A stretch of DNA of 64,000 nucleotides from Marispirochaeta sp. (GTDB taxonomy: Bacteria > Spirochaetota > Spirochaetia > JC444 > Marispirochaetaceae): assembly GCA_963676835.2 (NCBI GenBank), contig CAXXFF010000002.1, positions 1,824,001-1,888,000 on the forward strand, written 5' to 3'. Shown here one piece after another: positions 29,218 to 57,204 of the stretch; positions within the stretch are counted from its first letter, which is position 1, and each line of letters begins with the position of its first letter. Under the pieces are notes generated by a model. It saw only the letters and a list, made by a program, of their open reading frames with translations, ran no database searches and was not told the origin of the DNA. The position numbers were made by a program, and so were the translations under genes.

Positions 29218-29413
29218 CTTGAAAAAAGAAAAGCCCCAATCTTTCGATTGGAACAAAACCTGAAGCCGAAGGGCTGGGCCAGCGGTTTGCGAAGCAACAC
29301 CGCGAGCCCGAGCTTGTGCAGGGTTTTCCGAAGGAAAATCCCGAGAGTTGACGCAGAAGCCCGAAAAAGAAAAGGCCCCATTCCGAAGAATGGAGCCTTT
29401 TCTTTTTCGGGCT
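29218..29413. repeat. Structured tRNA-linked repeat, copy A
   Basis: Aligns with 57011-57204, 52603-52685 and 56917-57006. Confidence 0.9.
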
Positions 29414-29454
29414 GGGCGGATTTGAACCGCCGACCCCTTGTCCCCCAGACAAGT
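29407..29454 (-). repeat. Duplicated 3' 48 nt of tRNA-Pro (att site)
   Basis: Identical to 57198-57245; D-arm and 5' acceptor strand absent. Confidence 0.95.
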
Positions 29455-29664
29455 CCCCCTTATCCTACGGGTTCCTTTGTATTCCTACTATAACTATATA
29501 AAAGTATATTGAGTAGACAATTAAGTCAATGTTATTCCCAAGTGTTACCTCGGATTCCCGTTCCAAGGGAAAGATTTTTTGGTCACAAATTTGGCTACAA
29601 ATTTATTCTATGTGATATAGATATATTAGTAGCACTATAATTACTGGCTACCGTTGAAAAGTAA

Positions 29665-30471
29665 CTATGAATGATCCTGATACGAGTTGCTTGGTGAATA
29701 CCCCATAGCCACGGAAACCTTTTTTCCAGTTTCTCTAAGTTCGCTAAGTATTTCATTTTCCAAGGTGTTCCTAGCAATAATTGCGGTGGAGCATGAGACA
29801 CTGATAGCCGCAACGCACTGAGAATGATGATTGAGTACTGGAACTGAGATGCACTGCATCCCTAATGCATGCTCCTGCAAATCTAGTGAATATCCACGCT
29901 GCTTGACTAATTCAAGATCATCTAACAATTTAGTTTTATCGGTAATAGTAAAATTAGTTTTAGGCTTCATCTCAAGATCTTTAATAATTGTCTCAAGAGC
30001 TCCTCGCTCCAGATGAGCCAGCAGCACTTTTCCGGCGGCGGTAGAGTATAGATCTGTTCGCAGGCCAATGAAGGAAGAGCATTTCAAAGCTCCAGGCTGA
30101 TGGTTAACATCCACCTTATCCACATAAACGGCCTCTTTGTTATCGAGAACCAGTAGATGCACTGTCTCACTTAAGTTGCGGCTTAGCTCCTCAAGATAAA
30201 AATGTCCTCTTTCTCTTACGTTTACTCGCTGAAGATAGGATTGCCCGGCCCTTACAAGACTCAAACCTATATCGTACTTGCGTGTTTCATCATCTTTCTG
30301 CAGATAACCCATTTCGGTCAGGGTCTTTATGTGATGATGCAGGGATGATTTGTTGTAGCCTAGCGCTTCAGCAATCTCCTTGATGCTCAGGGGCCTGTTT
30401 TTGTTGAATATGGTTTCAATAACCCCGATAGCTTTGCCTACAGTGTTAAGTTTTTTTTCGGAAACTTCCAT
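29665..30471 (-). CDS. IclR family transcription regulator
   Basis: HTH LSIKEIAEALGYNKSSLHH; SETVHL, STAAGKVLLA, GYSLDLQE, AAISVS. Confidence 0.92.
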   Translation of the reverse strand: MEVSEKKLNTVGKAIGVIETIFNKNRPLSIKEIAEALGYNKSSLHHHIKTLTEMGYLQKDDETRKYDIGLSLVRAGQSYLQRVNVRERGHFYLEELSRNLSETVHLLVLDNKEAVYVDKVDVNHQPGALKCSSFIGLRTDLYSTAAGKVLLAHLERGALETIIKDLEMKPKTNFTITDKTKLLDDLELVKQRGYSLDLQEHALGMQCISVPVLNHHSQCVAAISVSCSTAIIARNTLENEILSELRETGKKVSVAMGYSPSNSYQDHS

Positions 30472-30538
30472 GAGAATTTCATAATACGAAATGTCGATTG
30501 TAGTCAAGAAAAAAGTGTTCATATTAAGAGTTGTCCTG

Positions 30539-30590
30539 TTGACAAATAAAAAACGCACCCTTAGTATATATATATGAAACGGAGTTTCAA
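30539..30590 (+). promoter_or_regulatory. Sigma70 promoter with KdgR/IclR-like operator
   Basis: TTGACA(30539)-N17-TAGTAT(30562); palindrome TGAAAC-GGA-GTTTCA at 30575-30589. Confidence 0.7.
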
Positions 30591-30613
30591 ATAGAGAAAC
30601 GATAGAGGGTGTT

Positions 30614-31087
30614 ATGGATCATAAAACACTGGCTGAAGAAGCGATTAGAGTCATCAGGCCTGCCATAACTGTTCTGTTAAACGAGAAAGCCAAACGCAGG
30701 GATATGCATGTTGTAGTTATGGATCCCACGAAGAAACCCTGGGAGACTGGTTTCGAGGAGGCGATCCTCTATGAATGCTCATTTAGCGATAAATCAAATT
30801 GGGAGAACCCTTACGATGAGCTGGCGCGGGCGAAAGCTAAACAAGCATGGAGGGATGGCAAAGGGAATATGCATAAGCACCTGAATGCTCCCGCAACCCT
30901 GTCCTCGGGTGATGTGACCTTTTACGGATCCTTTGAGTATGAAGGAGTTATTGTTGCCGCCAGCGGCATAGAGCCCTGGTTTGATGTGCTGGTAAGTGGT
31001 TGGATTGTATTAACGGTACAACAGCTGGCTCAGGATTGGTACCAACGGTTCAAATGCGAAAATCCCTCTGCCTTCTATATCCCCTGA
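30614..31087 (+). CDS. Hypothetical protein, distant GlcG/HbpS-like
   Basis: HVVVMD...ARAKAKQA...GVIVAASG....D pattern resembles the GlcG fold. Confidence 0.55.
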   Translation: MDHKTLAEEAIRVIRPAITVLLNEKAKRRDMHVVVMDPTKKPWETGFEEAILYECSFSDKSNWENPYDELARAKAKQAWRDGKGNMHKHLNAPATLSSGDVTFYGSFEYEGVIVAASGIEPWFDVLVSGWIVLTVQQLAQDWYQRFKCENPSAFYIP

Positions 31088-31135
31088 TATTTCCGGAATC
31101 CATATCAGTACGGGATAAAACAAATTACAAGGAAA

Positions 31136-32326
31136 ATGAATATGACGAATTTTGAATGGAGTATGCCGACCAAGTTGAACTATGCAGAAGGAAACCTCGA
31201 GAAGGTTGGCGAATTAACCAAGGGATTTGGCACGAAGGCCATGGTTGTTTCGTACGCACAGCCGGGAAAAGGCGTATGGGTTGTAGAGAAGGCGCTGGAG
31301 TCGCTGGATAAAGCAGGAATCTCCTATATTCTCTATGACCGCATTGAACCGAATCCGCGCGTAACAACCATTGATGCCGGAGTGGAAGTCTTTAAGCGTG
31401 AAGCATGTGATTATATTCTCGCCGTAGGCGGCGGTAGTGTTATCGATGCATCAAAGTATATCTCCGCAACAGCGTTTTGTGGTGGATCCTGCTGGGATTA
31501 TGTGATTCTTAAAGAGCGGAAAGAAAAAGTCTATACCGGGGCGTATCCGATTGTAGCGGTGCCTACCGTAGCCGCATCCGGATCGGAAGCCAACGCCGGA
31601 GGGGTGATTACTAATTGGGAGACAAACGAGAAGAGCTTCTGCCGCTCCGAACATAGAATACCCCGGATGGCGATTATCGATCCCAAGGTATTTGCTACCT
31701 TGCCAAAGAAAATTACTCTCGACAGTAGCATCGACATCTTCTCTCATCTGATTGAGCACTATCTTTCCAGCGATGCCGAGTCGGAGATCGCTGACCGGAT
31801 TACCGAAGGGTTGATACTGACAGTAATGGAATGTCTTGACCGGGTAATCGAGGATCCTGAGGATCTAGATGCCAGGGGAGAACTCTCGCTTGCGTCAATC
31901 CTTGGCTGGTCAGGGCTACAGGCCCTTGGTCGAACCGGTTCGATCCCTATCCACTTCATTGAACACCAGCTAAGCGGACACTTCGATGTAAGCCATGGCC
32001 GTGGAATTGCAGTCATTATTCCTCCGTATCTGGAGTATTTTGCTGATGCGAAACCGGCACGCTGGGCAAAACTTGCCCGCCGGGTTTTCGGCGTTGCTGA
32101 GAGGAATGATGTTGCAGCTGCGAAGATGCTTCACCAGAAAGTGCGTGACTGGTTTCAGTCGGTAGGGATGCTGCTGACGTTGACTGATGTAGGGATTACC
32201 GGAAAAAACGAGGTCATTGCTGACGATGTTATTAGGATGTATGGCACTCTGGAGGGAGACAAGGTTCCCGGGGCTCGACCTATGTCTCACAGCGACGTTT
32301 TAAATGTGCTGAATGCAGCTGTTTAG
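31136..32326 (+). CDS. Iron-containing alcohol dehydrogenase
   Basis: GGGSVIDASK, ASGSE, HFIEHQLSGHFDVSHGRG. Confidence 0.92.
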   Translation: MNMTNFEWSMPTKLNYAEGNLEKVGELTKGFGTKAMVVSYAQPGKGVWVVEKALESLDKAGISYILYDRIEPNPRVTTIDAGVEVFKREACDYILAVGGGSVIDASKYISATAFCGGSCWDYVILKERKEKVYTGAYPIVAVPTVAASGSEANAGGVITNWETNEKSFCRSEHRIPRMAIIDPKVFATLPKKITLDSSIDIFSHLIEHYLSSDAESEIADRITEGLILTVMECLDRVIEDPEDLDARGELSLASILGWSGLQALGRTGSIPIHFIEHQLSGHFDVSHGRGIAVIIPPYLEYFADAKPARWAKLARRVFGVAERNDVAAAKMLHQKVRDWFQSVGMLLTLTDVGITGKNEVIADDVIRMYGTLEGDKVPGARPMSHSDVLNVLNAAV

Positions 32327-32675
32327 GTAAAGAATCACTGGTTGCAGGAGTCAGCAGAGTTCGGCCTGTCAGTTCTTTCTGTAGTTGACGGGCCTTATCT
32401 GTTCGAGTCCGCTGATTGTACTAAACGTATACATGGAGTATACGTAAGCTGTGTATTTGTGTGTTTTATAAATTAATGCTGTTCTATGATTAGTCGCCTG
32501 TCATAAGTGGAAAAATTGCTAACCTACATGCGTGTTTACCAATAAGTACTTACTTAAAAGGGTTTTATGCAACAAACTGCACTGTTTCAAATCAGCTGGG
32601 TTACAAATTTCAAACCATTAGACAATAAGAGAATACAAGAAGTATACAAAAAGACTATTAATGAAACGATTTAGT

Positions 32676-32704
32676 TTGACATAAAAAAATACATGAAGTA
32701 TACT
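32676..32704 (+). promoter_or_regulatory. Sigma70 promoter of second tct operon
   Basis: TTGACA-N17-TATACT. Confidence 0.7.
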
Positions 32705-32904
32705 AATAAACGAAATTGATTCCATATCGAAGAAGTTCATAAAAATCAAGACATAGAAAAAGTTATTGAAGGCCCGTCAGGCATGCCTGCAGGCTGAATA
32801 GCAGATGCGCGTGCGTTTTGCTTGTGTGTCTATCGTTTGCGCTGGTTGTAGCAATCTGCATATGTAGATGAGCAACATATATATCCATCGGATAAGGAGT
32901 GTTT

Positions 32905-33888
32905 ATGAAAAGGATTCTAGTAGTTTTGTGTTTAGTGCTGATAGTAGCCGGACTGTCTTTCGCTGAAGGACAGGGCGAAAAGGAATATCCCACCAAGGAT
33001 ATTCAGTTTATCTCAGCCGGAAATGCTGGTGGCGGTGCTGATGCACTTTCTAGAAAGATTTGTGCCATTGCGCAAAAGGATCTGGGCGAAGATTTCTATA
33101 TTGTCAACAAGGGTGGATCTTCCGATGCAAACGGACCCAGTCTGTTGATGAAAGCAAAACCCGATGGCTATACAGTCGGGCAGCTTCTGTATGGTTCTGT
33201 TGTTTCAGCTGTGTGGAATGAAGTCCTGCCAGGGTATGATCTGGATCAACTTGAGATTTTCGGAATGGTCTCTGCGGAAGCAGACTCCTTTGTTGCTGGA
33301 AAGCACAGCGGTATCACCTCATTTGATGATCTGATCGCCAAGGCGAAGGCTGCGCCGAACACTATTACCGTAGCAGACCAGGGTGCTGGCTCACGGACTT
33401 ATATGATAGTCCGCCAGGTGGAAGAAATGTATGGTGTAAAATTTAACAATGTGTCATATCCAGGTTCTGGAAACATGCGGGAAGCTATTCTAAACAAGGA
33501 ACTGGCGGTTGGTGTTAATAGTCTCGGAGACTTTGCTCCTATTATAGATTCCGGAGACGCTATCGGTCTGGTAGAGTTCAGTCCGAAAAAGAATATGAAG
33601 TACCAGGATGTCCCCGTTTGTCCTGACCTTGGAATGCCTGAAAGTATGCAGAGTGGGTCTTTCTTTGCACTTGCAGTTCCAAAAGGCACACCTGAAGATA
33701 TTATCACGCTTCTGGCAGATACTTTTAAAATGGCAGTCGAGAGTAAGGAGTTTACCGATTTTACAACTTCGATTGGAGTTACGCCTGTCTCCATGAACAG
33801 AGCTGATTCTGTAGCCTACGTTAAGGGGGTTCAGGAAAGAGCCTTCAATGCTCTTCAGGAATTGAAAGACAAAGGGTTGATTGATTAA
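32905..33888 (+). CDS. tctC: TTT substrate-binding protein (TctC/Bug)
   Basis: YPTKDI..NAGGGAD, KPDGYT, PKGTP; signal peptide. Confidence 0.9.
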   Translation: MKRILVVLCLVLIVAGLSFAEGQGEKEYPTKDIQFISAGNAGGGADALSRKICAIAQKDLGEDFYIVNKGGSSDANGPSLLMKAKPDGYTVGQLLYGSVVSAVWNEVLPGYDLDQLEIFGMVSAEADSFVAGKHSGITSFDDLIAKAKAAPNTITVADQGAGSRTYMIVRQVEEMYGVKFNNVSYPGSGNMREAILNKELAVGVNSLGDFAPIIDSGDAIGLVEFSPKKNMKYQDVPVCPDLGMPESMQSGSFFALAVPKGTPEDIITLLADTFKMAVESKEFTDFTTSIGVTPVSMNRADSVAYVKGVQERAFNALQELKDKGLID

Positions 33889-33971
33889 AACCTGAGGATT
33901 CGAACTATATTCGAATTTGACGGACGGCAGAAAACACTTCTGCCGTCCATTTTTTAAGGAGTCGTTTTGTT

Positions 33972-34493
33972 ATGAATAGCAGAGCAACATATTTAAATGC
34001 GGAGGTTCTGACACCAGTCGGAATAATCGTTTTTCTGCTGGGCTATTTAGCAGAAGCTTTACGTATGGGGTGGATTGTAAAGGATGGTTTACCATCGGAA
34101 TCTTTTTTTCCTGTACTTTTATTTGTCCTGGGGTTTCCCGTCGCCGTGTATCTGTTGATACATGGGCTATTGAAAACAAAAGAGAAATTGGAGACTGCAG
34201 TACCAGTTGGTGCTGTCCCCGAGCGGGATGGAGGAAGTTCGTCAAAACTGGTCGTAGATGTAAAATACAAGCCTTTTTTTATCACAGTTTTAACTGTGGC
34301 CTTTATCGTATTGTTTAAATATTTAGGATATACCATTTCGGCTCCTATTTATATTTTTCTTTTTCAGCTGATATATGATGATGAGTTTGGAAACTACTTA
34401 AGAAAAATTATCGTGTCAGTAATTGTTAGTGTACTTGTATATGTTCTCTATGTTGGTTTCTTCAATATTCTCTTTCCGGAGGTTTGGAAATGA
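33972..34493 (+). CDS. tctB: TTT small permease
   Basis: 4-TM protein between tctC and tctA. Confidence 0.8.
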   Translation: MNSRATYLNAEVLTPVGIIVFLLGYLAEALRMGWIVKDGLPSESFFPVLLFVLGFPVAVYLLIHGLLKTKEKLETAVPVGAVPERDGGSSSKLVVDVKYKPFFITVLTVAFIVLFKYLGYTISAPIYIFLFQLIYDDEFGNYLRKIIVSVIVSVLVYVLYVGFFNILFPEVWK

Positions 34494-36022
34494 ATAGTCT
34501 TCTGCAAATTCTAGAAGGATTTTCATTTTTGACAGATCCTTATTCAATTCTGTTGTTGAGCCTCGGATTTTTTATAGGTATCATTTTTGGTTGTCTGCCA
34601 GGTTTGACTGCTACTCTGGCAATAGTCCTGCTGATGCCCATGACTTACTCCATGCCACTTTCGCAGGCTCTGGTTGTTTGTGCCGGCATATATATGGCAG
34701 GGACATATTCAGGTTCTATCTCAGCAATTACGCTTAATATACCAGGAGCACCAGCCGCAATGATGACCAGCCTGGAAGGACATCCTATGATGAACAGGGG
34801 GGAAGGCGCTAAAGCCATCGGGTCCGTTACAATAGGATCGGCCATTGGCGGAACTATTGGCAGTATTCTCCTGATCCTTGTGGCTCCTTTAACAATGGAA
34901 CTTGCTCTTCATATCCGCACCCCAGGAAAGACGGCGCTTATTTTCTTTGCCTTAATTGTTGTGTCTCTACTATCAGACAGTAAGGCTAAGGGGCTCATAT
35001 CTCTGGTATTTGGGTGCATGCTTTCCACAATTGGTATGGATGTACTAAGCAATAATTCCCGCTTTACTTTTCAGATCCCCAGTATGCTCCAGGGTATTGA
35101 GCTTACAACCATTATCATTGGCGCCTTCGCTCTTAGCGAATTGCTCTCTCAGTCAACAGTTAACAATAAAGAGTACAAAGAGCGTGTAGATAAAGCGAGT
35201 TCCAGGCGGTTTAAAAGAAAAGAGTTCTTTCCCAGTTTTAAAGAGATGAAAGAGATCGGCTTTTTGACCTACCTGAAAAGCGCATTGATCGGCTATGTAA
35301 TAGGGGTGCTGCCGGGAAGTGGGGCATCGATGGCTGCCTTCGTTTCTTACGCTGAAGCGAAACGAAGCTCCAAACATCCTGAAAAATATGGAAGAGGATA
35401 CCCTGAAGGAATGGTTGCAGCAGAAACCGCTAATAATGCGGTCTGTGGCGGAGCTTTGATTCCCATGCTCTCTTTGGGGATTCCCGGAGACGGTGTTACA
35501 GCTGTTGTGCTTGGGGTTTTAATGATCTATGGAATTGTCCCCGGCCCGACTTTGCTGGCAAATCAGATGGCTGATATTGCACCCATGTTTATTGCACTGC
35601 TTTTTTCAGCAATGATCCTACTGCCACTGTCGCTGTATCTCTTTGGCCCGTTCTATCTAAAGATTGCAAAAATCCCCCGGCTACCCTTATACAGTTCAAT
35701 TGGATTGATTGCGATCCTGGGAGTCTATTCGTCTACCTTGGATTTCTTTCAGATGTTCGTAGCTCTGGTAATCGGAATTCTGATTTATTTTCTGGGCAAA
35801 CAGCATTACCCCAAAGTGCCTTTTATTTTAGGTGTTATTCTGGGGCCGCTGTTTGAGTTGTACCTGCGCACAGCTATGTCAATAAGCAACGGCAACCCAC
35901 TGATTTTTATAACAAGTTTTGACAGTCTTATATTCCTGCTGTTGACAGTTTTCTTTGCTATCTTTTTGCCAAGAGTCAATAACATATCACATGAGCGAGC
36001 TGTGGCTGTTGAAGAGAAATGA
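34490..36022 (+). CDS. tctA: TTT large permease
   Basis: GCLPGLTAT, NIPGAPAA, ETANNA, LSLGIPGD. Confidence 0.93.
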   Translation: MNSLLQILEGFSFLTDPYSILLLSLGFFIGIIFGCLPGLTATLAIVLLMPMTYSMPLSQALVVCAGIYMAGTYSGSISAITLNIPGAPAAMMTSLEGHPMMNRGEGAKAIGSVTIGSAIGGTIGSILLILVAPLTMELALHIRTPGKTALIFFALIVVSLLSDSKAKGLISLVFGCMLSTIGMDVLSNNSRFTFQIPSMLQGIELTTIIIGAFALSELLSQSTVNNKEYKERVDKASSRRFKRKEFFPSFKEMKEIGFLTYLKSALIGYVIGVLPGSGASMAAFVSYAEAKRSSKHPEKYGRGYPEGMVAAETANNAVCGGALIPMLSLGIPGDGVTAVVLGVLMIYGIVPGPTLLANQMADIAPMFIALLFSAMILLPLSLYLFGPFYLKIAKIPRLPLYSSIGLIAILGVYSSTLDFFQMFVALVIGILIYFLGKQHYPKVPFILGVILGPLFELYLRTAMSISNGNPLIFITSFDSLIFLLLTVFFAIFLPRVNNISHERAVAVEEK

Positions 36023-36089
36023 TTCATCGGCAGATGATTCAGTGTGATCAGTAACTATATTTCCGTAAGTTTATAAGGAGGCACTTTTT

Positions 36090-36977
36090 GTGAATATAGA
36101 TTTTAAAGGCATTATTCCCCCGGTGGTTACACCGTTTACCTCTGACGGGAAGAAGATATCTGAAGAGAGATTTCGTGAGGTGATCCGCCATGTAGTCTCC
36201 AATGGCTGCTCGGGCGTATTTATCGGTGGCAGCCAGGGTGAGTTCTTCTCCCTCAGCTTCGAAGAAAGAGTTCGGTCGTATGAAATCGCGGTTGATGAGG
36301 CTGCCGGTAAGTTTTATGTGTTTGCCGGTACCGCTGCTGTAACGACGGAAGAAGCAGTCAATCTTACAAAAGCAGCGGAAAAGGCGGGTGTTGACGCTGC
36401 TTCCGTAATAAATCCTTATTTTATTACCCCTGATGCACAGGAGCTGTACGATCACTATAAAACTATTGCTGATTCTACCGCGCTTCCAGTATATCTGTAC
36501 AATAACCCGGGGCGAACCGGGAGTGTAATTCCGGTTTCAGTTATCTCCAGGTTATCTGGGATTGAGAATATTGTTGGTATGAAAGATTCCAGCGGCGATC
36601 TTACCTATGTGAATAATATACTCAGTAGTACGGAAAACTTCGATCTATTCTGTGGACGTGATACCTGCATCTACAATGAACTTACTTCCGGTGCCGTTGG
36701 GGCTGTTGCGGCTACCGCTAATGTTGCTCCTGCGCTGGTATCGAGTATTTATAATGCAGTACAAGTCGGTGACCTGGCGCAGGCCAGGAAGGCGCAATCA
36801 GAACTTGCCCCTTTGAGGAACGCATTCGACCTTGGAAGTTTTCCAGTTGTTGTGAAAGAAGCGTTACAGCTGATCGGCCTGGAGGTGGGGCCTGCGCGCC
36901 TACCTGTGCGTCCCCTGACGATCGAAAACAGGGCTAAATTAAAAGATATTCTTATTTCCATGAATTTGATCAACTAG
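36090..36977 (+). CDS. DHDPS/NAL-family class I aldolase or dehydratase
   Basis: VTPF, GSQGEF, YNNPGRTG, GMKDSSGD. Confidence 0.9.
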   Translation: MNIDFKGIIPPVVTPFTSDGKKISEERFREVIRHVVSNGCSGVFIGGSQGEFFSLSFEERVRSYEIAVDEAAGKFYVFAGTAAVTTEEAVNLTKAAEKAGVDAASVINPYFITPDAQELYDHYKTIADSTALPVYLYNNPGRTGSVIPVSVISRLSGIENIVGMKDSSGDLTYVNNILSSTENFDLFCGRDTCIYNELTSGAVGAVAATANVAPALVSSIYNAVQVGDLAQARKAQSELAPLRNAFDLGSFPVVVKEALQLIGLEVGPARLPVRPLTIENRAKLKDILISMNLIN

Positions 36978-37100
36978 AGCAGTAAGCCCGGCTATTGTAC
37001 TCGGCCGGGCATTATTATTGATCTAATAATGAGTTACAGCCAGAGAAGACAGATGGCCTAGCTTGACGCATACAAAATTTTATCATAGCGTGACAAAGGT

Positions 37101-37757
37101 ATGTACTCGGAAAAACACAACAAGGAAAGTGTCTACAAGGACATTCACAAGCAGATTCGAACCGGTAAGCTGGCCCCAGGCGACCATATTCTGGAAAAAG
37201 AGCTTTGTTCAAAGTACGGATTGAGTCGGACTCCAATGCGGGAAGTCCTCTGGAACCTGGAAAAGGAAGGTCTCCTGATACCAGCGCCTAAAAACGGATA
37301 TCTTGTACGCGAACTTAACCTGCAGGAAATAATGGAGATTTTCCAGGCTAGGGAGGCGGTGGAAGGAATGGCTGCCTATCTGGTTTCGCATCTGCGCAAT
37401 GAAGATTTCTTTAACAGGTTGAAGGAATTCAGGGAAGCTCTGGAATCTTTAAGTGATGATGAAATGCAGGCTGAAGGTCCAAAACTTGGTGCCCAGTTGC
37501 ATACATTCATCATAGAAAATGCTAACAACGGTATCTTGTTCGGATACTATAAAATGCTGCACACCCTATACTCTCTAACTGTCAACATTTCAAGTCAGTC
37601 CAGGGAAATCGAGAGTAAGTCGAGGGAATCTCACCTCGCTATAATAAAAGCGATAGAGGACAGAAACGGAGAGCTCGCGGAAAAGCTGATGCGCGAACAT
37701 CTTCGAGAGACCTGTCGAAATATTGCGAAGGTTTTTTATCCTAATTTGATAGAGTAA
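37101..37757 (+). CDS. GntR/FCD transcription regulator
   Basis: LSRTPMRE HTH; FCD domain. Confidence 0.92.
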   Translation: MYSEKHNKESVYKDIHKQIRTGKLAPGDHILEKELCSKYGLSRTPMREVLWNLEKEGLLIPAPKNGYLVRELNLQEIMEIFQAREAVEGMAAYLVSHLRNEDFFNRLKEFREALESLSDDEMQAEGPKLGAQLHTFIIENANNGILFGYYKMLHTLYSLTVNISSQSREIESKSRESHLAIIKAIEDRNGELAEKLMREHLRETCRNIAKVFYPNLIE

Positions 37758-37799
37758 AGCTTGATGGCTCTGGTGTATATAAACTGTGCTATGCTCAGC

Positions 37800-38816: not shown

Positions 38817-38856
38817 ATTGTCTTTCCTGCTATTCTGGAATATAAAAAACTTTTGC

Positions 38857-38969
38857 TTGACAGCTCATCAATAGAGGGATTATAGTACATAAACCGGTTT
38901 ATGTAAAAGCTAAAAGGCTAAATAAACCAGTTGTTTTTTATTTTTTGTCATACTAAATCGGTTTAGTAT
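38857..38969 (+). promoter_or_regulatory. Promoter with two LacI-type operators
   Basis: TTGACA(38857)-N18-TATAGT; perfect palindrome TACATAAACCGGTTTATGTA 38886-38905; near-perfect ATACTAAATCGGTTTAGTAT 38950-38969. Confidence 0.85.
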
Positions 38970-38986
38970 TCGAAGGGGATAGGAAA

Positions 38987-46840: not shown

Positions 46841-46846
46841 GAGGAA

Positions 46847-47176: not shown

Positions 47177-47240
47177 GCTTTATTTTGATAGAGGAGGCGG
47201 GCAGCCTCCCGATGTTATTCATGTTACCCCCCCCCTTGTA

Positions 47241-47295: not shown

Positions 47296-47305
47296 GGGGG
47301 GGGGG

Positions 47306-48338: not shown

Positions 48339-48452
48339 AAAAGTGCTCGCCTGATTGTTTAGGATGTTCTAAATGAGGTGTTCCCTCAACATTTATGAAG
48401 GATGTGCCATATATATTAATTTATCATATTTGGATAATATCTTGCTAGGGAA

Positions 48453-49106: not shown

Positions 49107-49127
49107 AAAGTTCTCGAGCGATTCAAT

Positions 49128-49983
49128 TTATTTGAATACAGTCCTATCCAAATAATGAGCCCATATGGTTTCAAACCACGATTCTTCCTGTGGAATTTCT
49201 CGCGTCGGTATCCATTGGCACTTTATGGTTCCTGACTGTGGATTCCATCGAATGTGCTGTACTTTTTGCCGCAATGCAGTGTTCTCTGGAATAATTCGCC
49301 AATCAGAAAGTAGGGGATGGATTTGTCTGCCTTCTTCGTTATTGTTGCTGGCAACGAGCGATGAGGCACGGCTGCCTCCACCCTTGTGTAAATAATCTGA
49401 AATTGCTTCTAAGTACATTCTGTGGCCAAAGACCATATGGCGCAGTTTTAGTGCATTGGGCAATCGCCATGGATCCACTTTCAAGCCGGAAAAACGCTTC
49501 TGCTGATCCACGGCTTCCGATATTGCCATATTGATTTCAGTTGAATTACGAATTGCTGCAGCTTGTTTGCTCATGCGGACCTGAAACTCCCGTTTGTATT
49601 CTCTGTCGCAATCAGGGATGGGCGGTTTTCCGGTGAGTGTATCGATAATGGATAAAATCTCTGATAGTGTATCTTTGCCGCTGCTTTGTGCTGAATCCAA
49701 GTCCAATGTTTTCTTCTGGTAACCGAATGCGATTTTTTGAGCAGCCCGGAAAGCTCCTACCTGGCCGGAATTAAGCGCTGTTCCGCCCGGACGGGCTGCG
49801 CCATGGCTCCCATTGACTTCTCCAACTGGGAATAGGTGGTGGATATTAACCGATTCCCACCAAATATCTGCAGCAAGCCCTCCATTGTTATGCTGTGCTG
49901 AAACGGCGATCTGCAGCGGCTCTGTATAGAGATCAATATTGTGATCCTTGTATAACTGTATTGCAGCAGGATTCAGCTGCTTA
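49128..49983 (-). pseudogene. 3' remnant of FAD-dependent oxidoreductase (SdhA/FrdA-like flavoprotein family) truncated by IS21
   Basis: QHNNGGL..LFPVGEVNGSHG..RPGG.ALNSGQVG; 5' part replaced by the IS end. Confidence 0.8.
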
Positions 49984-50181
49984 TGTGTACACCGGCCGAA
50001 AACGGACACCCATTCCGGAGGAAAGCGGACAGTGATTCCGGGCAAAAACGGACACCTGTTCCGGCCGAAAACGGACAGTTTTTCCGGAGCGCCGGAATTG
50101 CTTTAACCTGAAATAAGAAATCCTCGATTAACACGAGCACTCTCGTCACAATAGCAAAACTACTATTTGACGGAGTACAGA

Positions 50182-51729
50182 ATGTCGAGAGCGAGGATTC
50201 ATGTGAAACACATGCGTAAACTGCTTGCGCTCACGTACGAGAGCAAGCTGGGACTTCGGGATGTATCCCAACTGACCGGAGTATCTAAAACCACAGTCAG
50301 CGAATATCTGGTGCGATTCCGCCGCACCGGGATCAGCTATGCAGCAAGCCAAAAGCTTACCGATGAGCAGCTGCTTGGCCTGTTCGAAGAGAAAAAGCAG
50401 GAAGAAAGTGAGCAGTATACACAACTAACGACACTGTTCCCCGAGTACGCCAAACGGCTGAAACAGCGGGGGATGACGAAGCAGTTCCTATGGAAGGAAT
50501 ACCGTAGAAAGTATCCAAACGGATATAGATACAGTCAGTTCTGTCACCACTTTACGGTGTTTCTGGACTGCGGTGAGGTGACGATGCGTCAGCCCCACGA
50601 GCCTGGAGATATGGCATATCTCGACTATGCCGGAGAAACGTTCCCTTACTATCCTGATGGAGATGAGCAGCGGGCACAAATATTCGTTGCGGTACTCGGA
50701 GCAAGTCAGCTGGCCTATGTTGAAGCAAGTGAGAGCCAGAAACAAGAGGCCTTTGTCCGCTCCACAGAACGGGCTCTGAGGTACTTCGGCGGGGTTCCGC
50801 GAGCTCTCGTCCCGGATAACCTGAAGGCGGCCGTGCTCAGTGCGAGTAAATATGAGCCGGAGCTTAATCCGTTGTTCGATGATTTTGCCGATTACTACCG
50901 GACGACGATAATCCCCGCCAGGGCCTATAAACCGAAAGACAAATCCCTGGCGGAGAATGCCGTCAAGTTAACCTATCAGCGGATATTCGCCCCGCTGTAC
51001 GGCAAGAGGTTCCATTCGTTGGCTGAGCTCAACCAGGCCATCGCAGAACTTCTTGAAGAACACAATACCCGGAAACTGACAAAGCTGCAAATCTCACGGC
51101 GTCAGTTGTTTGAAGAGATCGAACGGTCTGCGCTGAAGACGCTGCCGGGCGAACCGTATCCAATGAAATACTTCGAAACTCACAAGGTTGCACCGGACTA
51201 TCACTTTATCCTGTCAAAAGATAAGCACTACTACTCTGTTCCCTGGCAGCTGAAGGGAGAACAGGTCAAAGTGATCTTTGATGAGCGAATTATAGCGGTA
51301 TATCACAAGAATGTACGCGTAGCCCAGCACCGCCGGAGCAGAAAGAAAGGACAATACTCCACACAGTCCGCACACATGCCCAGGCACCATCAGTTTGTTG
51401 AATCATGGTCGGCGGAGAAGTTTACCACCTGGGCTCAGTCGATTGGAGAAGAGACGTTCCTGGTGATTTCACATCTATTAAACAGCAAGCCACATGAGCA
51501 GCAGGCGTACAAATCCTGCCTTGGTGTGCTGAACCTGGCAAAGGATGCCGGATCACACCGGCTGAACTGGGCCTGCCGACGTGCGTTGAACTACTCGAGA
51601 ATCAGTTATCGGGATGTTCGTGCATATCTGGATGAAATCATGCGACAAGAAAAGGATGAACAGCAGAACAAACAGGTGTTTCTCTTCGCCGATCACAAGA
51701 ACCTGCGGGATTCTGCAATCTACAAATGA
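50182..51729 (+). CDS. istA: IS21 transposase
   Basis: LDYAG, VPDNLKAAV, PKDKSLAE, HYYSVP. Confidence 0.95.
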   Translation: MSRARIHVKHMRKLLALTYESKLGLRDVSQLTGVSKTTVSEYLVRFRRTGISYAASQKLTDEQLLGLFEEKKQEESEQYTQLTTLFPEYAKRLKQRGMTKQFLWKEYRRKYPNGYRYSQFCHHFTVFLDCGEVTMRQPHEPGDMAYLDYAGETFPYYPDGDEQRAQIFVAVLGASQLAYVEASESQKQEAFVRSTERALRYFGGVPRALVPDNLKAAVLSASKYEPELNPLFDDFADYYRTTIIPARAYKPKDKSLAENAVKLTYQRIFAPLYGKRFHSLAELNQAIAELLEEHNTRKLTKLQISRRQLFEEIERSALKTLPGEPYPMKYFETHKVAPDYHFILSKDKHYYSVPWQLKGEQVKVIFDERIIAVYHKNVRVAQHRRSRKKGQYSTQSAHMPRHHQFVESWSAEKFTTWAQSIGEETFLVISHLLNSKPHEQQAYKSCLGVLNLAKDAGSHRLNWACRRALNYSRISYRDVRAYLDEIMRQEKDEQQNKQVFLFADHKNLRDSAIYK

Positions 51730-51737
51730 GGTAACCG

Positions 51738-52478
51738 ATGAATAATAATCAGGCGACAATCAACAAGATGACCGAGATGCGTCTCCACGGAATGGTACAG
51801 GCCTTCCGTACACTGCAGGAGACCGGACGCCATATGGATCTTACAACCGATGAGGTTATCAGCTACCTTGTCGACTCAGAATGGGATGAGAAACACAATC
51901 GCCGACTGGCGCGCCTTGCCAATGCGGCCCGTTTCCGCTATAAGGCAGCGATTGAAGATATCGACTATACCTTCGACCGGAATCTGGACAAAAACCAGAT
52001 CTTAAGACTTGCAGCCTGCTCCTGGATATCCCGGGGGCAGGACCTGCTCATCACGGGTCCGACCGGAGGAGGAAAAAGTTTTCTTGGATCGGCTTTCGGA
52101 CATCAGGCATGTCAGTATGGGTATACCGTCGCTTACTTTTCCACAACGCGTTTATTCAATGAAATAGCGGCGGCAAGGGATGATGGAACCTACCTGAAGC
52201 ACTTGTCACGCATAATGAAAAACAAGCTGGTCATTATCGATGACTTCGGTCTGGAACCGCTGGAGCATACTGCACGGATGGCATTTCTTGAAATCCTTGA
52301 AGATCGACACCGGAGAAAATCTACGATAGTGATCGCCCAACAGCCGGTAGAAAACTGGCACAGCATTATCGGTGACCCCACGATTGCCGATGCCATAATG
52401 GACCGTCTTGCCTTTCATTCTCATAGAATTGTAATAACCGGGGACTCGGTAAGGAGGAAACTCTATGCTGTAGATTGA
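51738..52478 (+). CDS. istB: IS21 helper ATPase
   Basis: GPTGGGKS, IIDDFG, ADAIMDRL, GDSVR. Confidence 0.95.
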   Translation: MNNNQATINKMTEMRLHGMVQAFRTLQETGRHMDLTTDEVISYLVDSEWDEKHNRRLARLANAARFRYKAAIEDIDYTFDRNLDKNQILRLAACSWISRGQDLLITGPTGGGKSFLGSAFGHQACQYGYTVAYFSTTRLFNEIAAARDDGTYLKHLSRIMKNKLVIIDDFGLEPLEHTARMAFLEILEDRHRRKSTIVIAQQPVENWHSIIGDPTIADAIMDRLAFHSHRIVITGDSVRRKLYAVD

Positions 52479-52602
52479 CGCAAAACGGACACCTGATCAT
52501 ACTGAAGACGAGGATTTACTTCCTTCAGGCAGCTGTCCGTTTTCCGCCGGAATCACTGTCCGAAATCATCGGAATACACATAACTGTAAACTAATGTCCT
52601 GA

Positions 52603-52685
52603 CTTGAAAAAAGCCCCAATCTTTTGAATGGAACAAAAACTGAAGCCGAAGGGCTGGGCCAGCGGTTTGCAAAGCAACACCGCGA
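52603..52685. repeat. Structured repeat, partial copy B
   Basis: Matches 29218-29305. Confidence 0.85.
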
Positions 52686-53004
52686 ACCAAGTCAGCGGCA
52701 GGATGGCGCGAAGCTGAGCAGTCCATGGATGGACAAAAGCGAAGCCGGGCGGCAAACCTTAAGGCAATAATTATATTCATCCCTTTTCCATTGCTTTCCA
52801 CGACCGCACTACATAGACCGATCGACTGCTCCGCTGATGCAGATGATTGAAATTCCAATAACATAACATTATTTGACTGGATACGGTTTATCAGGTTTTA
52901 AAAATGTTCCAAAAATCTACATGTAATCCGGCAGATTCTAAAAAAATTGGAAGAGAGAATGCAATTCTTCTCGGGGTAGGTGTAGCTTGACCATAAATTG
53001 TAGA

Positions 53005-53023: not shown

Positions 53024-53075
53024 ATGTAGTAGTGATAGAATTGGTAAATGAAGAATCGTGCAGAAGGAGATAATC

Positions 53076-54245
53076 ATGAAAATTACGGAAATAGAAACTT
53101 TTATATTACGGGTACCTTTAAAAGGAAAAACCTTTCTTTCCTCCCAGTGTTCCTTCCCGGAACGTAACAGCCTTCTGGTTAAAATAACTACAGATAACGG
53201 CCATATCGGCTGGGGAGAGGGTGGCCAGTACGGACCACCGGAACCGGTTAAGGCTTGCATCGATCATGTTCTTGGCCCCCGATTGCTGGGTCAGGATCCC
53301 ATGAACCGGGTTGTGCTCTCCGAGCAGATGTATGCGGCAACTCGCGATTTTGGTCAGCGGGGGCCTTATATTGAAGGTATCAGTGCGCTGGATATTGCCA
53401 TGTGGGACATTGCCGGCAGATATCTGAATCAGCCTGTAAGCGTCCTTCTCGGCGGTGCCTACCGGGAAAGTATTTCCGCTTATGCTACAGGAGGCTACTA
53501 TCCGATTGCGGATTTTGAAGATGGAAAAGTCGACTACGAATCACTACGGTCCGAGGCTGAGGGGTATCTGAGAAAGGGCTTTACCATGATTAAAATGAAG
53601 ATAGGACTCCTGTCTCTGGAGGAAGATTATAACCGGGTTAAGACGATTCGGGATGTTGTCGGCCAGGATTTTAAAATCATGATCGACTGTAACCATGCCT
53701 ATAACGCAGCATCAGCCGCAAAAATGATCCGTCTCCTGGAGTCGCTGAAGATCGAGTTTCTGGAAGAACCTGTGCCTCCTGAGGACCTTACAGGATATTC
53801 ACGGCTCCGTGAGTGGTCTCCAATTCGTATTGCCGGGGGGGAATGTTTTTATACCGGCTACGATTTTCGTACAACTCTGGAGAAAGGGGCAGTAGATATT
53901 CTGCAGCCTGATATCTGTGTAACCGGTGGGTTTACAGAATTCTTGAAAATTCGTTCTCTCGCGTTTGTGTATAACACCATGCTAATACCCCATGTCTGGG
54001 GATCTGGAATTGCCTTTGCCGCTGCACTCCAGGCGATAAGCACAATTCCGGCGTTTCCATACACCGCTAATAATGTTCCCCTGCAGAATGTTCCCATGGT
54101 AGAATTTGATCAAAGCCCCAATCCTCTACGGGATGAACTTCTGGTGGAAAAGTTTGTATTGGAGGAGGGGAAGGTGGCGGTTCCCTGTAGAGCGGGGCTT
54201 GGAGTTACCATTGATCCGGATGTACTTGAGAAATATGCAGTGTGA
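53076..54245 (+). CDS. Mandelate racemase/muconate lactonizing enzyme family (acid-sugar dehydratase-like)
   Basis: DIAMWDI, KMKIG, DCN, EEP, GE, QPD, PH. Confidence 0.9.
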   Translation: MKITEIETFILRVPLKGKTFLSSQCSFPERNSLLVKITTDNGHIGWGEGGQYGPPEPVKACIDHVLGPRLLGQDPMNRVVLSEQMYAATRDFGQRGPYIEGISALDIAMWDIAGRYLNQPVSVLLGGAYRESISAYATGGYYPIADFEDGKVDYESLRSEAEGYLRKGFTMIKMKIGLLSLEEDYNRVKTIRDVVGQDFKIMIDCNHAYNAASAAKMIRLLESLKIEFLEEPVPPEDLTGYSRLREWSPIRIAGGECFYTGYDFRTTLEKGAVDILQPDICVTGGFTEFLKIRSLAFVYNTMLIPHVWGSGIAFAAALQAISTIPAFPYTANNVPLQNVPMVEFDQSPNPLRDELLVEKFVLEEGKVAVPCRAGLGVTIDPDVLEKYAV

Positions 54246-54266
54246 ACGGTTATGGTTAAGCCTGGT

Positions 54267-54920
54267 CTATGACTGGTACCGGATTAATGCATCCCGGGTG
54301 TTACGGATATGCAGACGCATGGCACTCTCGGCTGCTTCCGGTCCGGTCCGCAGCCCCTGTAATATTTGAAGGTGTTCGACGTAGGATTCTTCAATCCGCT
54401 TCGGAATCAAGGCCGCATCCCTGTGCTCCTTGTCGAGAAGAGTCCGGTAGTTATTCAGAATTTCCTTTATACGCCTGTTCTGGGAGATTTCTATAATCAG
54501 GCGGTGAAGTTTTTCTCCGGCTTCTTCGGCAGCACTCTGGAAAATGGAAATTTCTGATTCAATGCGTGCGGCAGTGAACTGTACTTCAAGTTCTGCAAGC
54601 AGTTCTGGCGATAATCTTCCGGCAGACAAAGAGGCTGCCATGCCTTCAATGGCTTCACGGATCTGAAACAGCTCAATGATATCGTGTAGGCTTATCCGAC
54701 GGATGAATGCACCTTTGCGGGGAATTATCTCGACGATTCCCTCCTTCTCAAGCTGGAGAAATGCTTCCCGCACCGGAGTTCGGCTAATTTGCAGCCGGGT
54801 GGAGATTTCAACCTCGTTGAGTGGATCCCCCTGGTTCAGTTCGTTTGCCAGGTAGAGTGAGGAGAGATGGTCGTAGACCTGCTGTTTCAGGGATTGTGGC
54901 TTTCTGTTTTCAGGCAGCAT
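54267..54920 (-). CDS. GntR/FCD transcription regulator
   Basis: ISRTPVREA. Confidence 0.92.
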   Translation of the reverse strand: MLPENRKPQSLKQQVYDHLSSLYLANELNQGDPLNEVEISTRLQISRTPVREAFLQLEKEGIVEIIPRKGAFIRRISLHDIIELFQIREAIEGMAASLSAGRLSPELLAELEVQFTAARIESEISIFQSAAEEAGEKLHRLIIEISQNRRIKEILNNYRTLLDKEHRDAALIPKRIEESYVEHLQILQGLRTGPEAAESAMRLHIRNTRDALIRYQS

Positions 54921-54974
54921 TTTTTCGTGTATATTCCTCTCAATCTGACATTAAAAATGCCTGATAGAAACTAT

Positions 54975-55580
54975 TTATACCACATTTGCGCGCAGAGATC
55001 GAATCGCGGCCTCAATATCACCGACTTCCACTGCTTTTAGAATATTTTGATGCTCAGTTACCCTGTGATTTAGATCACGCAAACTTGAATAGCTGGGAAT
55101 AGTCCTGTTTCGTACCATTTCCCACAGATTAAGCACATGATCTTCCGGGTGAAGAACAATAAAGAACCGGTGAAAGCTGATATCAGTTTCAATATACTCA
55201 TCCAGATTATCATTATTGGCAGCCGATTCCATCCCGGATAATATTTCTTTCCAGGCAGGAAGATAGTTTTCCTTCAGATTCTGCCATACCTTGCGAAGCA
55301 CAAACTCCTCAATTTCAAGACGAATATGAATAATAAGATCCACAACCTCCTGTTCTGGTGATCCTGCTACCTTTGTTCCTACATTGGGGGTCATTTCCAC
55401 TATGCCCTCCCGCATAAGCAGCTGCAGGGCCGCACGGATTGTCCCCCTGCTTACTTCAAAGCGGTCTGAAAGCTGCTGCTCTTTTAGCAGAGTGTTCCGC
55501 GGGAGGCTCCCGGAGAGTATCTCTATGCGTATTCTATACGCTATCTGTTCAGAGATGGTTCTGTAAATACCTCGTGCCAT
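54975..55580 (-). CDS. GntR/FCD transcription regulator
   Basis: VSRGTIRAAL, DISFH, TEH. Confidence 0.9.
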   Translation of the reverse strand: MARGIYRTISEQIAYRIRIEILSGSLPRNTLLKEQQLSDRFEVSRGTIRAALQLLMREGIVEMTPNVGTKVAGSPEQEVVDLIIHIRLEIEEFVLRKVWQNLKENYLPAWKEILSGMESAANNDNLDEYIETDISFHRFFIVLHPEDHVLNLWEMVRNRTIPSYSSLRDLNHRVTEHQNILKAVEVGDIEAAIRSLRANVV

Positions 55581-55642
55581 ATAATTCCTTCCTGATGGAT
55601 TAAATTACCCTGTTAAAGCGAGGTTGTCTATCTTAATGCTAA

Positions 55643-55667
55643 TTGACAATTGTTGACAATTGACAAT
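55643..55667. promoter_or_regulatory. Triple TTGACAA repeat, candidate GntR operator/promoter
   Basis: TTGACAATTGTTGACAATTGACAA in the divergent intergenic region. Confidence 0.55.
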
Positions 55668-55717
55668 AGGGGCATGCTGTAATAGTATTTCCTGAGAACA
55701 AACTAAGGAGATAAACT

Positions 55718-56863
55718 ATGAAAATTGTAAGTGTTGAGGCATTCCCTGTGGAATTTCCCCTGAAGGTTCCTTCCCGGGATGCCACCGGAATATGGAACAG
55801 CTGGAATACGGTTATTATTAAAATCACCGCAGCTGATGGAACCTGCGGCTACGGAGAAGCTGGCCCTATACACGGCGGTGGAATCCCCATTTTCACAGCC
55901 ATTGTTGAGCACAGACTGGCTGGGCTTCTCTTGGGGGAAAACCCTTTTGACCGAGAGCGGATCTATGAAAAACTTCTCGGCAGAGGATCAGGTGCCTATG
56001 CTCTCGGTCAAAAAGGAGCTATTGTCACCGCAATAGCTGGAGTAGATATTGCTTTGTGGGACCTCACTGGAAAGATCCTGAAAACACCGGTCTACAACCT
56101 TCTCGGAGGCTGTGTTTATGAAAAAATTCCCGCATATGCCTCTGGTTTCTTTGGCAAAGACGGGAGGGCGCTTACTGCGGAAGAGTGCGCAGAAGAAGCC
56201 AGGTGTTATGTTGATCAGGGGTTCAAAGGTGTTAAGATGAAGGTCGGTTTCGGGCGGGATCGCGACCTTAAGAACCTGGCAGCAGTTCGTAAAGCTCTGG
56301 GACCGGATCTGGGCATTATGGTGGATGCCAACCAGAGCTATTCTTATCATGATGTTCTGAAAACAGCCAATGAGCTTGCAGCATTTGATCTTACTTTTCT
56401 TGAAGAACCTCTTCCCATTAACGATCTGGATGGTATGGCATCCCTGGTGCAGAATACTGCAACCCCCATCGCTGCAGGCGAGAATTATTATACCCGGTAC
56501 GAGTTTCGGGAAGTGATAGCACGACGAGCAGTAAATATTATTCAGCCGGATATTATTCATGCCGGAGGTATCGCAGAAACAAAAAAGGTCGCATCCATGG
56601 CACTGGCCCATAATATACCCCTGGCGCCTCACATTCATGCGACAGTCGGTGTCCCTGCAAGCATCCATCTACTTGCCTCATGTTCAAATACTCTCGCCGC
56701 GGAATATATTACCTCCGGCGGTTCCTATGACCTGCGGCTTGCCATGTTCGGAGATTGCTGCCTTGTGGATAAAGACGGATATGTTCCCGTACCTCAGGAG
56801 CCGGGGCTTGGCATACGGATGAACGAGGAGATCTTTGAAAGATTTAGGCCGAAGAAAAAATAG
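55718..56863 (+). CDS. Mandelate racemase/muconate lactonizing enzyme family
   Basis: DIALWDL, KMKVG, DANQ, EEP, GEN, QPD, PH. Confidence 0.9.
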   Translation: MKIVSVEAFPVEFPLKVPSRDATGIWNSWNTVIIKITAADGTCGYGEAGPIHGGGIPIFTAIVEHRLAGLLLGENPFDRERIYEKLLGRGSGAYALGQKGAIVTAIAGVDIALWDLTGKILKTPVYNLLGGCVYEKIPAYASGFFGKDGRALTAEECAEEARCYVDQGFKGVKMKVGFGRDRDLKNLAAVRKALGPDLGIMVDANQSYSYHDVLKTANELAAFDLTFLEEPLPINDLDGMASLVQNTATPIAAGENYYTRYEFREVIARRAVNIIQPDIIHAGGIAETKKVASMALAHNIPLAPHIHATVGVPASIHLLASCSNTLAAEYITSGGSYDLRLAMFGDCCLVDKDGYVPVPQEPGLGIRMNEEIFERFRPKKK

Positions 56864-56916
56864 CTGGTAATCAATATTGCTGATAAAAAGGTTCAACTCT
56901 TAGCACTGGAATGATC

Positions 56917-57204
56917 GGCCAGCGGTTTGCGAAGCAACACCGCGAGCCCGAGATTGTGGCAGGGTTTTCTGAAGGAAAATCCCGAGAACAAGCGAAGGAA
57001 GCCCGACTACAAAAAAAGCCCCATTCTTTCGAATGGAACAAAAACTGAAGCCGAAGGGCTGGGCCAGCGGTTTGCCGAAGGCAACACCGCGAGCCGAGTC
57101 AACGGCAGGGTTTTCCCGGAGGGAAAATCCCGAGAGTTGACGAAGAAGCCCGAAAAAGAAAAGGGTTCCGCTCTTTCGAACGGAACCCTTTTCTTTTTCG
57201 GGCT
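56917..57204. repeat. Structured repeat, tandem copies C (partial) and D
   Basis: GGCCAGCGGTTTGC..GCAACACCGCGAGCC occurs at 56917 and 57062. Confidence 0.9.

Follow-up and report, generated by a model that had tools for sequence, protein, structure and literature searches.

Why do copies of one multi-hairpin sequence stand at four places along an island beside a single tRNA gene? The question is raised by a 64,000-nucleotide stretch of a Marispirochaeta sp. genome (assembly GCA_963676835.2, contig CAXXFF010000002.1, positions 1,824,001 to 1,888,000; hereafter the window), in which an initial annotation had placed four copies of a repeat of about 150 bp in a common orientation. Both the places and the strand are confirmed: copy A lies at 29218-29413, B at 52603-52685, C at 56917-57006 and D at 57011-57204, all on one strand, next to tRNA-Pro(GGG) (Table 1). 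We find that the repeat unit is made of one or more ordinary tRNA terminators and a small module of DNA hairpins, here called the core, which is a real, structured, mobile and apparently undescribed family. The explanation we favour, and consider probable if well short of certain, is that the core belongs to a family of non-autonomous single-stranded DNA (ssDNA) elements resembling REP/REPIN sequences that colonise the tails of tRNA genes, and that the window copies are pieces of an array split by an integrase element and by an event involving the insertion sequence (IS) IS21. Below, G000 denotes the genome of the window, G001 to G005 the other Marispirochaeta genomes, and L-numbers the individual loci examined.

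A unit of terminators and DNA hairpins

On the tRNA (minus) strand, two of the hairpins, CCAATC/GATTGG and the long one adjoining the tRNA end, carry T tracts, G.U pairs and loops of GAAA or C(UUCG)G, and both fold 4-5 kcal/mol better when read this way (5/5 cases). The first and last hairpins of the unit match the sequence pattern of an intrinsic terminator, in which the transcribed strand carries a G+C stem and then a run of U, and a terminator scan annotated one of the two as such. These two hairpins are therefore predicted to be intrinsic tRNA terminators, and the first compensatory swap reported by the initial annotation consequently sits in a terminator. In copy D the long hairpin has the tRNA end AGCCCGA on one side and the same sequence inverted on the other.

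The core is read on the plus strand and consists of a hairpin (H3), the linker AGCCCAAG (AGCCC(A/G)AG), a second hairpin (H4) with a symmetric GGCA/GAGA internal loop, and GCAG; it is framed by one direct and one inverted copy of the tRNA acceptor end. Its structure is conserved: among 21 sequences from six genomes, 19 of the 24 pairs have changed on both sides, which bears out the proposal that structure is under selection. In the same alignment 91.9% of the cells pair, a value matched by none of 500 shuffles (slid controls gave 24-50%), although the sequences are related and the shuffle result is therefore not a probability. On the plus strand the z-scores of the ssDNA folds are -4.9 for D, -3.3 for A, -2.2 for C and -1.0 for B, and G.T pairs outnumber A.C pairs by 35 to 12 (53 unique rows, in an alignment fitted to the model). 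The suggestion that the repeat acts as folded plus-strand ssDNA thus stands for the core and fails for the whole 150-bp unit, two of whose hairpins are minus-strand terminators. The expectation of GNA loops of the DNA type also held for the core: the 42 apical loops of Marispirochaeta comprise 17 GNA, 4 ANA and 3 GNYA, with no GNRA or UUCG, 15 others and 3 unresolved. Stable DNA loops include GNA triloops and GNNA tetraloops (PMC10085684).

Within the window, A and D match over 236 nt (88% identity, E 1e-74), and their identity extends into the 3' half of the tRNA as an exact 59-bp repeat. The match of copy B covers 80 nt (94% identity) and that of copy C 121 nt (84% identity, E 2e-28). Four copies of about 150 bp had been described; the tandem period of 145-148 bp agrees with that length, but the full units are A and D, and the other two are partial: C lacks its left part, and B, which has no tRNA fragment, runs on beyond 52685 to about 52755 as a variant module. 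Likewise, the observation that differences between A and D preserve pairing is exact for the three hairpin pairs on which it was based, namely CCAATC-TTTC-GATTGG in A (29236) and CCATTC-TTTC-GAATGG in D (57021), TTGC-GAA-GCAA (29287) and TTGCC-GAA-GGCAA (57072), and TTTTCC-GAA-GGAAAA (29324) and TTTTCCC-GGA-GGGAAAA (57111). It does not extend to the first hairpin of B, which has an A.A mismatch, or to the basal H4 stem of A, which is broken (CTTGT vs GTTGAC) because A resembles C on its left and D on its right.

Searched against Rfam at the gathering score, the window returned tRNA and a distant group II intron and nothing for the core, and scans by E-value of the D region and 12 loci gave matches that were all below threshold, in keeping with the initial annotation, which recognised no named family in the repeat.

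Table 1. Features of the tRNA-Pro locus, from the intact tRNA to the gene beyond copy A (window coordinates)
Feature	Position	Strand	Remarks
tRNA-Pro(GGG), intact	57197..57272	-	sigma70-like promoter 57312-57283
att duplication, tRNA-side copy, 59 bp	57187..57245	-	from anticodon stem-loop to 10 nt past tRNA end; 100% identical to 29396-29454
Predicted terminator hairpin behind tRNA, 27 bp, A-tract/T-tract	57147..57204	-	GAAA loop, G.U pair on tRNA strand
Copy D core module	57050..57147	+	H3 (GAA loop), linker, H4 (GGCA/GAGA internal loop, GGA loop)
Copy D left part	57011..57060		decayed second terminator 57018-57039 (minus strand, GAAA loop); small GAAG-loop hairpin at 57048
Copy C, second tandem core module	56917..57006	+	interrupted by cargo where H3 starts
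Cargo block 1, between C and B	53058..56863		two enolase-superfamily (MR_MLE) genes, two GntR regulators
Copy B	52603..52755	+	terminator remnant, small hairpin, H3, variant hairpin block (CAGGATGG, CCATGGATGG) broken off at GGCA; E 1.5e-4
IS21	49984..52580	+	istA 50167-51729, istB 51738-52478; cuts open reading frame 49128-50045
Cargo block 2	29665..50045		sugar-acid catabolism, TTT and ABC transporters, regulators
Direct repeats TTTGGTCACA / TTTGGCTACA	29578..29599	+	about 125 bp inside left end, from att fragment
Displaced tRNA-Pro 3' fragment, attR-type	29396..29454	-	
Copy A predicted terminator hairpin	29358..29413	-	C(UUCG)G loop, G.U pair on tRNA strand
Copy A core module	29265..29358	+	H4 a C/D hybrid, basal stem broken
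Copy A left part	29218..29275		decayed second terminator (minus strand) and GAAG-loop hairpin; end resembles that of copy B
Monomeric isocitrate dehydrogenase gene	26848..29070	-	between copy A and shared backbone; absent at this place in G002

Linkage to tRNA genes in Marispirochaeta

A model of the core (R1) has 54 matches in all six Marispirochaeta genomes, nine of them in G000. Fifty-two lie in arrays at, or up to 6 kb downstream of, genes or fragments of tRNA-Pro(GGG/CGG), Met, Arg(CCT), Leu(CAG) or Gly, so that the clustering at tRNA 3' ends and att fragments envisaged by the initial annotation is real. Relative to the tRNA, the core is antisense in 21/21 Pro-linked matches and sense in the 31 linked to Met, Arg, Leu or Gly. 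The remaining two have no tRNA nearby, and one of these (L110) interrupts an RHS-type coding stretch without a duplication, which suggests precise insertion for a Marispirochaeta module. An 11-mer test for tRNA fragments was positive for 46/54 matches and also for 29% of random windows; given so weak a control, linkage was assigned by reading the loci, three G005 matches being read on the near-identical metagenome locus L069. A sister genus contributed one further match, behind tRNA-Leu(TAA), and none was obtained in 140 other Spirochaetota genomes with strict filters and 30 candidates scored per genome.

Two related observations may be added. A short metagenome contig without a tRNA carries a 95-bp tandem array with the same H4 hairpin (L071:36-309). 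There is also a second type of tRNA-tail module, with hairpins of the CAGGA/CATGGATG type framed by inverted and direct copies of the T arm, which forms the right half of copy B and occurs in G000 at C1:645477 (L152), C3:520715 (L153), C2:1743412 (L154), C2:1074262 and C2:1470443; the tRNAs carrying it are Ala (in an rRNA spacer), two Met(CAT), Leu(CAA) and Leu(CAG).

Mobile forms in Alphaproteobacteria

Is the core confined to spirochaetes? The exact H4 pattern, searched in 185,579 species, occurred in five stretches, two of which belong to alphaproteobacterial metagenome-assembled genomes (MAGs). There, the module stands directly behind tRNA CCA ends or att fragments, 9 of its 21 pairs covary (17 sequences), and 70 matches are found in 8 of the 37 genomes of the order; one alphaproteobacterial pattern gave none in 400 other genomes of the class. 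The alphaproteobacterial model recovers copies C (E 9e-6), D (2e-5) and A (3e-4) of the window, all on the plus strand. Because one of its seeds had been found with the spirochaete pattern, this link between phyla is not fully independent.

Evidence of mobility came from a weak match, L163, in which an H4-type hairpin stands alone within an IS256 transposase gene. Compared with an uninterrupted IS256 allele it is a clean 40-bp insertion, with no nucleotide duplicated and none deleted. Plasmid records carrying this 40-bp form number 97, with 212 sites among them; Pseudosulfitobacter, Leisingera and Sulfitobacter contribute most, and nearly all the records, judged by the listed names, are from the Roseobacter group. 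Eight loci examined yielded 13 elements with constant ends: 12/13 start with C(A/G)(C/T)TGCCC-GGCAG, all 13 end with CGAGAGG, the preceding base is C in 11/13 and the following base G in 12/13. According to the flanking translations, 11 elements lie in IS transposase genes of the IS256, IS66, IS3 and IS5 types, where both orientations occur, and two lie in a RelE-like gene. The C^G step in the TTCGA of the tRNA T-loop is the same as this insertion point and may be the reason for the preference for tRNAs. Mobility at the level of DNA, as the initial annotation had supposed, is thus supported by the L110 insertion and by the filled IS256 allele, and since the core is also found in marine Alphaproteobacteria, cleanly inserted in other genes, it resembles an undescribed family of tiny mobile elements. 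Phage and plasmid collections, searched with tRNA-array queries from Marispirochaeta or the Alphaproteobacteria, gave no real match; in IMG/VR three H4 patterns found nothing and the Roseobacter pattern found two loci.

Hairpin-guided precise insertion without duplication is the behaviour of HUH enzymes (IS200/IS605, RAYT), and the RAYT/HUH-type mobility of REP hairpins offers a comparison (PMC3116915). With its fixed ends and C^G insertion point, and its presence in culturable Roseobacter-group strains, the 40-bp hairpin is a concrete substrate with which to find the enzyme, and an enzyme for precise, duplication-free ssDNA insertion would make a useful tool. If the element indeed disables IS transposases and reshapes the hot spots of integration at tRNAs, it also bears on the taming of mobile DNA and on the growth of islands. 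For annotation, the tRNA fragments within arrays are a hazard in that they mimic att sites.

Comparison with known systems

Tandem units that repeat a tRNA 3' end and terminator are familiar from E. coli, where the locus-specific 178-bp tyrT repeats stand behind a tRNA gene. The window arrays resemble them in this respect; we know of no mobile ssDNA core in repeats of the tyrT type.

The closest likeness is to the RAYT-moved REP/REPIN/BIME sequences, which are gene-less, imperfect, strand-asymmetric hairpins in mosaic and tandem arrays, with lineage-specific sequence variants and occasional gene insertions (PMC3116915, PMC3733652). The module is likewise an imperfect, strand-asymmetric hairpin of conserved structure, and its 40-bp form inserts precisely without duplication, as the empty and filled IS256 alleles demonstrate. 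It differs in its low number (about 9 copies per genome against hundreds), in targeting tRNA 3' ends, in being framed by direct and inverted copies of the tRNA end, and in its conserved 4x4 purine-rich internal loop. Nor did we find the GTAG/CGTC foot tag: there is one GTAG in the A, B and C/D regions, in a terminator arm, and none is conserved in alignments A1 or A3. The core therefore works like REP/REPIN/BIME sequences yet lacks two features of membership, the tag and a RAYT-linked cluster.

The NTS/SRM hairpins of Ssn nucleases (PMC11893778) are likewise oriented ssDNA hairpin repeats spread across phyla, but the SRM consensus occurs in 0/66 module rows and no ssnA-like gene was found next to a module; the small GIY-YIG genes of the genus (two genomes) are in 23S rRNA genes, not beside modules. 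An IS-derived MITE was rejected as well, since insertion is clean and without duplication and the inverted ends of the arrays are copies of the tRNA end. We found no description of this hairpin family in the accessible literature consulted, which included passages of PMC3733652, PMC3184786, PMC5737381 and PMC6429828.

Proposed mechanism and the case against it

How could such arrays have arisen? Miniature, gene-less hairpin elements would fold on one strand as ssDNA, with the conserved GGCA/GAGA internal loop as the probable protein site, and would be moved in trans by an HUH-type enzyme encoded elsewhere; we infer that the core functions as DNA rather than as RNA. In Marispirochaeta they would have colonised the 3' ends of several tRNA genes, where tandem copying together with pieces of the tRNA end and terminator would produce arrays with a period of 130-170 bp on the host side of the integration site. 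At the window locus, an integrase element may then have split the locus at the anticodon loop, creating the 59-bp duplication and displacing array A, and a second version of the array (D, C and B) would have stood behind the intact tRNA and itself been interrupted by cargo. Finally, an IS21-mediated deletion or recombination would have joined both parts and probably removed the integrase.

Several points weigh against this account. The alignments beneath the pair and wobble counts consist of related sequences and were in part fitted to the model; the core has a low copy number, and no pair of empty and filled alleles was found for any Marispirochaeta tRNA site. An alphaproteobacterial seed came from the Marispirochaeta pattern, and the kinship between spirochaete and Roseobacter forms is based on a short common hairpin core. 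No co-occurring enzyme partner was identified among the IntI-, HUH- and GIY-YIG-type candidates checked. Matches to the Y1/RAYT family occur in 3/5 genomes tested and in neither of two alphaproteobacterial MAGs (possibly incomplete), a second RAYT-like query gave none in 5/5 module-bearing genomes, and the flanks of five Y1/RAYT-like genes in G000 contain no module.

None of the individual candidates could be linked to the module: IntI has its own attC family, no module stands alongside the RAYT-like Y1 genes, small GIY-YIG genes do not track the module, and IS91-like Y2 genes do not appear to track it either. The search for IS91-type Y2 proteins gave 0/5 module-bearing genomes, its controls also giving nothing, and a tblastn search of G000 with the Y2-like protein of L109 found none. 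That locus (L109:609-2464, in G003), which follows a tRNA-Leu array at a distance of about 0.8 kb on its downstream side, encodes an IS91-like Y2 transposase and, upstream of it, a tyrosine-recombinase fragment. The GIY-YIG nuclease open reading frames, of about 90 codons, lie inside 23S rRNA genes (G000:C3:407478-407675, L062; G001:C42:659-868, L061) at positions that differ between species, each in a long intervening sequence bounded by inverted repeats. Among the RAYT-like Y1 open reading frames of G000, one at C2:520301 (minus strand) has a long tandem expansion encoding repeated HPDHRD, and another at C2:457776 has repeats of the ERNLST type.

Alternative explanations

Could the core instead be an RNA structure? 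It might act in the tRNA 3' trailer, or as an antisense RNA, with effects on processing, stability or read-through, and have spread among tRNA loci by gene conversion. All alphaproteobacterial tRNA-linked copies examined are sense and directly behind CCA, including those at tRNA-Ile and tRNA-Ala of rRNA spacers, which also counts against our account to the extent that it is compatible with an RNA role; changes compatible with G.U pairing are present, and computation hardly separates RNA from ssDNA motifs (PMC5737381). We nevertheless regard this explanation as unlikely, because the Pro-linked matches are all antisense, the Marispirochaeta core is mostly behind a strong terminator, its loops are GNA, ANA and GNYA rather than the GAAA and UUCG of the neighbouring terminators, and the 40-bp form is found in either orientation within IS genes.

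A bolder form of the mobile-element reading would make the GGCAG...CGAGA hairpins cross-phylum ssDNA mini-transposons which, in Marispirochaeta, were domesticated into tRNA-anchored arrays that recolonise tRNA ends after island insertion and serve as an integron-like platform that takes up toxin-antitoxin, defence and metabolic genes with no integrase of its own. We think it doubtful that this extended scenario holds as a whole.

The repeats might also be a passive by-product of a hot spot for integration at tRNAs, where terminators, slippage and att duplications generate similar hairpins, with no functional or mobile element involved. This holds for part of the unit, namely the terminators, the 59-bp duplication and hybrid copy A; exact tandem copies exist in congeners, and tycheposon islands show accretion of partial tRNAs and cargo behind tRNAs (10.1101/2020.12.28.424599). 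As a full account it is improbable, since it leaves unexplained the recurrence of a single conserved core at six types of tRNA within a genus, the compensatory changes, the occurrence in a distant class and the precise insertions away from tRNAs.

Cargo between units

Cargo does lie between units in G000 and its relatives, in line with the accumulation behind the tRNA that the initial annotation had proposed. At the tRNA-Leu(CAG) of G000, partial units enclose a Gp49/HTH pair and an RRM gene, and a HigB/HTH pair comes next; in G004 a DUF4258/MqsA-like pair stands between units, as do HerA and methylase genes in G001. The window shares one order with L119 and L111: the tRNA is followed by a unit, then by cargo that lacks a recognised integrase, and then by an att fragment and another unit. 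In addition, the DUF4258/MqsA-like pair of G004, placed between tRNA-Leu arrays, has an imperfect direct repeat of 21 bp on either side (L111:3560-4260).

Does cargo enter by recombination at the repeat? That it does so precisely is not supported: the junction lies where H3 begins in C, within H4 in B, L003 and L016, and in the linker and at the GAGA end at the Leu locus of G000. As the breakpoints are different every time, the arrays act as insertion/deletion hot spots and not as precise cassette sites. The consensus of attC core sites is RYYYAAC ... GTTRRRY, and inverted sites of this kind were found in 0/66 module rows and 0/3 window regions; as a control, 16 attC-like sites, located by their own pattern, are present in the genome's own integron. 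That chromosomal integron (G000:C3:1-29100, L151) encodes an IntI (TIGR02249 over cut-off) and has at least 16 attC-like sites of about 170-190 bp and several cassettes of the toxin-antitoxin type; integrase matches of a span similar to its IntI occur in G002 and G003. The module thus shares with integron attC and CALIN arrays (PMC4889954; DUF1874 motif, PMC5737381) folded ssDNA repeats with toxin-antitoxin-type genes between them in a genome that has an IntI, but it lacks R and L boxes and a rhythm of one gene per site, its junctions are imprecise, and the true attC sites of the genome are a separate family. We therefore give little credence to the core as a dedicated attC-like site at which an enzyme acting in trans would capture gene cassettes and stack them behind tRNAs: the small cargo, the recurring layout and the encoded integron integrase speak for it, but the variable junctions, the missing core boxes, the size of the window cargo (blocks of 4 and 20 kb, multi-operon) and island ends that form a conventional att pair speak against it.

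The island at tRNA-Pro

What, then, made the island itself? It is mostly ordinary. An intact tRNA and a displaced 3' fragment in direct orientation bound the 28-kb region, the arrangement of a tRNA-targeted integrative element, and an att repeat that starts in the anticodon arm is the 'A site' of tRNA-targeting tyrosine integrases (PMC4383910). The repeats TTTGGTCACA and TTTGGCTACA may be integrase arm-type sites, and similar pairs are present at both ends of an integrase island in G002. No integrase was found in the island of the window, where a tblastn search with a relative's integrase gave a best E of 0.21. The tRNA-targeting elements described under Islander (PMC4383910) and as tycheposons (10.1101/2020.12.28.424599) account for the 59-bp duplication, the arm-like repeats and the build-up of cargo; the window differs from them in its lack of an integrase and in a hairpin array on the host side, and a structured module is absent from the parts of these descriptions consulted.

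The closest relative, G002 (96% protein identity next door to the locus), has a different, 10-kb island at the same tRNA, with its integrase directly behind the intact tRNA. No repeat follows that intact tRNA; one unit stands behind the displaced fragment and is followed by the shared backbone, from which it follows that the array is on the host side. The proposal that the repeat delimits or mobilises the island is not supported: the ends of the island are a standard duplication from the anticodon loop, and the integrase island of G002 has no repeat behind the intact tRNA.

The H4 of copy D is nearly identical to that of the native unit of G002, and A and B share like ends. The simplest history would be that the tRNA-Pro array existed in two versions, of which an integrase element displaced one while the other stood behind the intact tRNA, and that an event mediated by IS21 brought the two together. 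This IS21 begins about 20 bp to the left of copy B and is probably the joint between the two halves of the island; it has nine copies in the genome, at least 99.7% identical and recently expanded, with a 4-bp target duplication at 6/9 and none at the window copy. Short-read contigs end at IS21 and the join is not confirmable from them, while synteny with G002 places both halves of the island at this locus. A contig joint at 56958-57122 was considered as an excision product and rejected, as it is copy A mapped onto C and D, and contig depths there are unusable as copy number. Alternatively, new modules may have recolonised the tRNA end after integration, a possibility raised because the same layout recurs in L119 and L111.

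Some neighbouring genes deserve a brief mention. One gene of cargo block 1 has homologues with 72-74% identity elsewhere in 4/5 congeners, and the monomeric isocitrate dehydrogenase used as a query was found in 1/5, at other places. Outside the island, a group II intron at 12295-14293 (Rfam RF02001, RF00029), with a reverse transcriptase/maturase open reading frame at 12903-14201, is absent at that position in G002. Paralogous genes for iron-containing alcohol dehydrogenases lie at 10963-11296, outside the island, and at 31129-31462, inside it.

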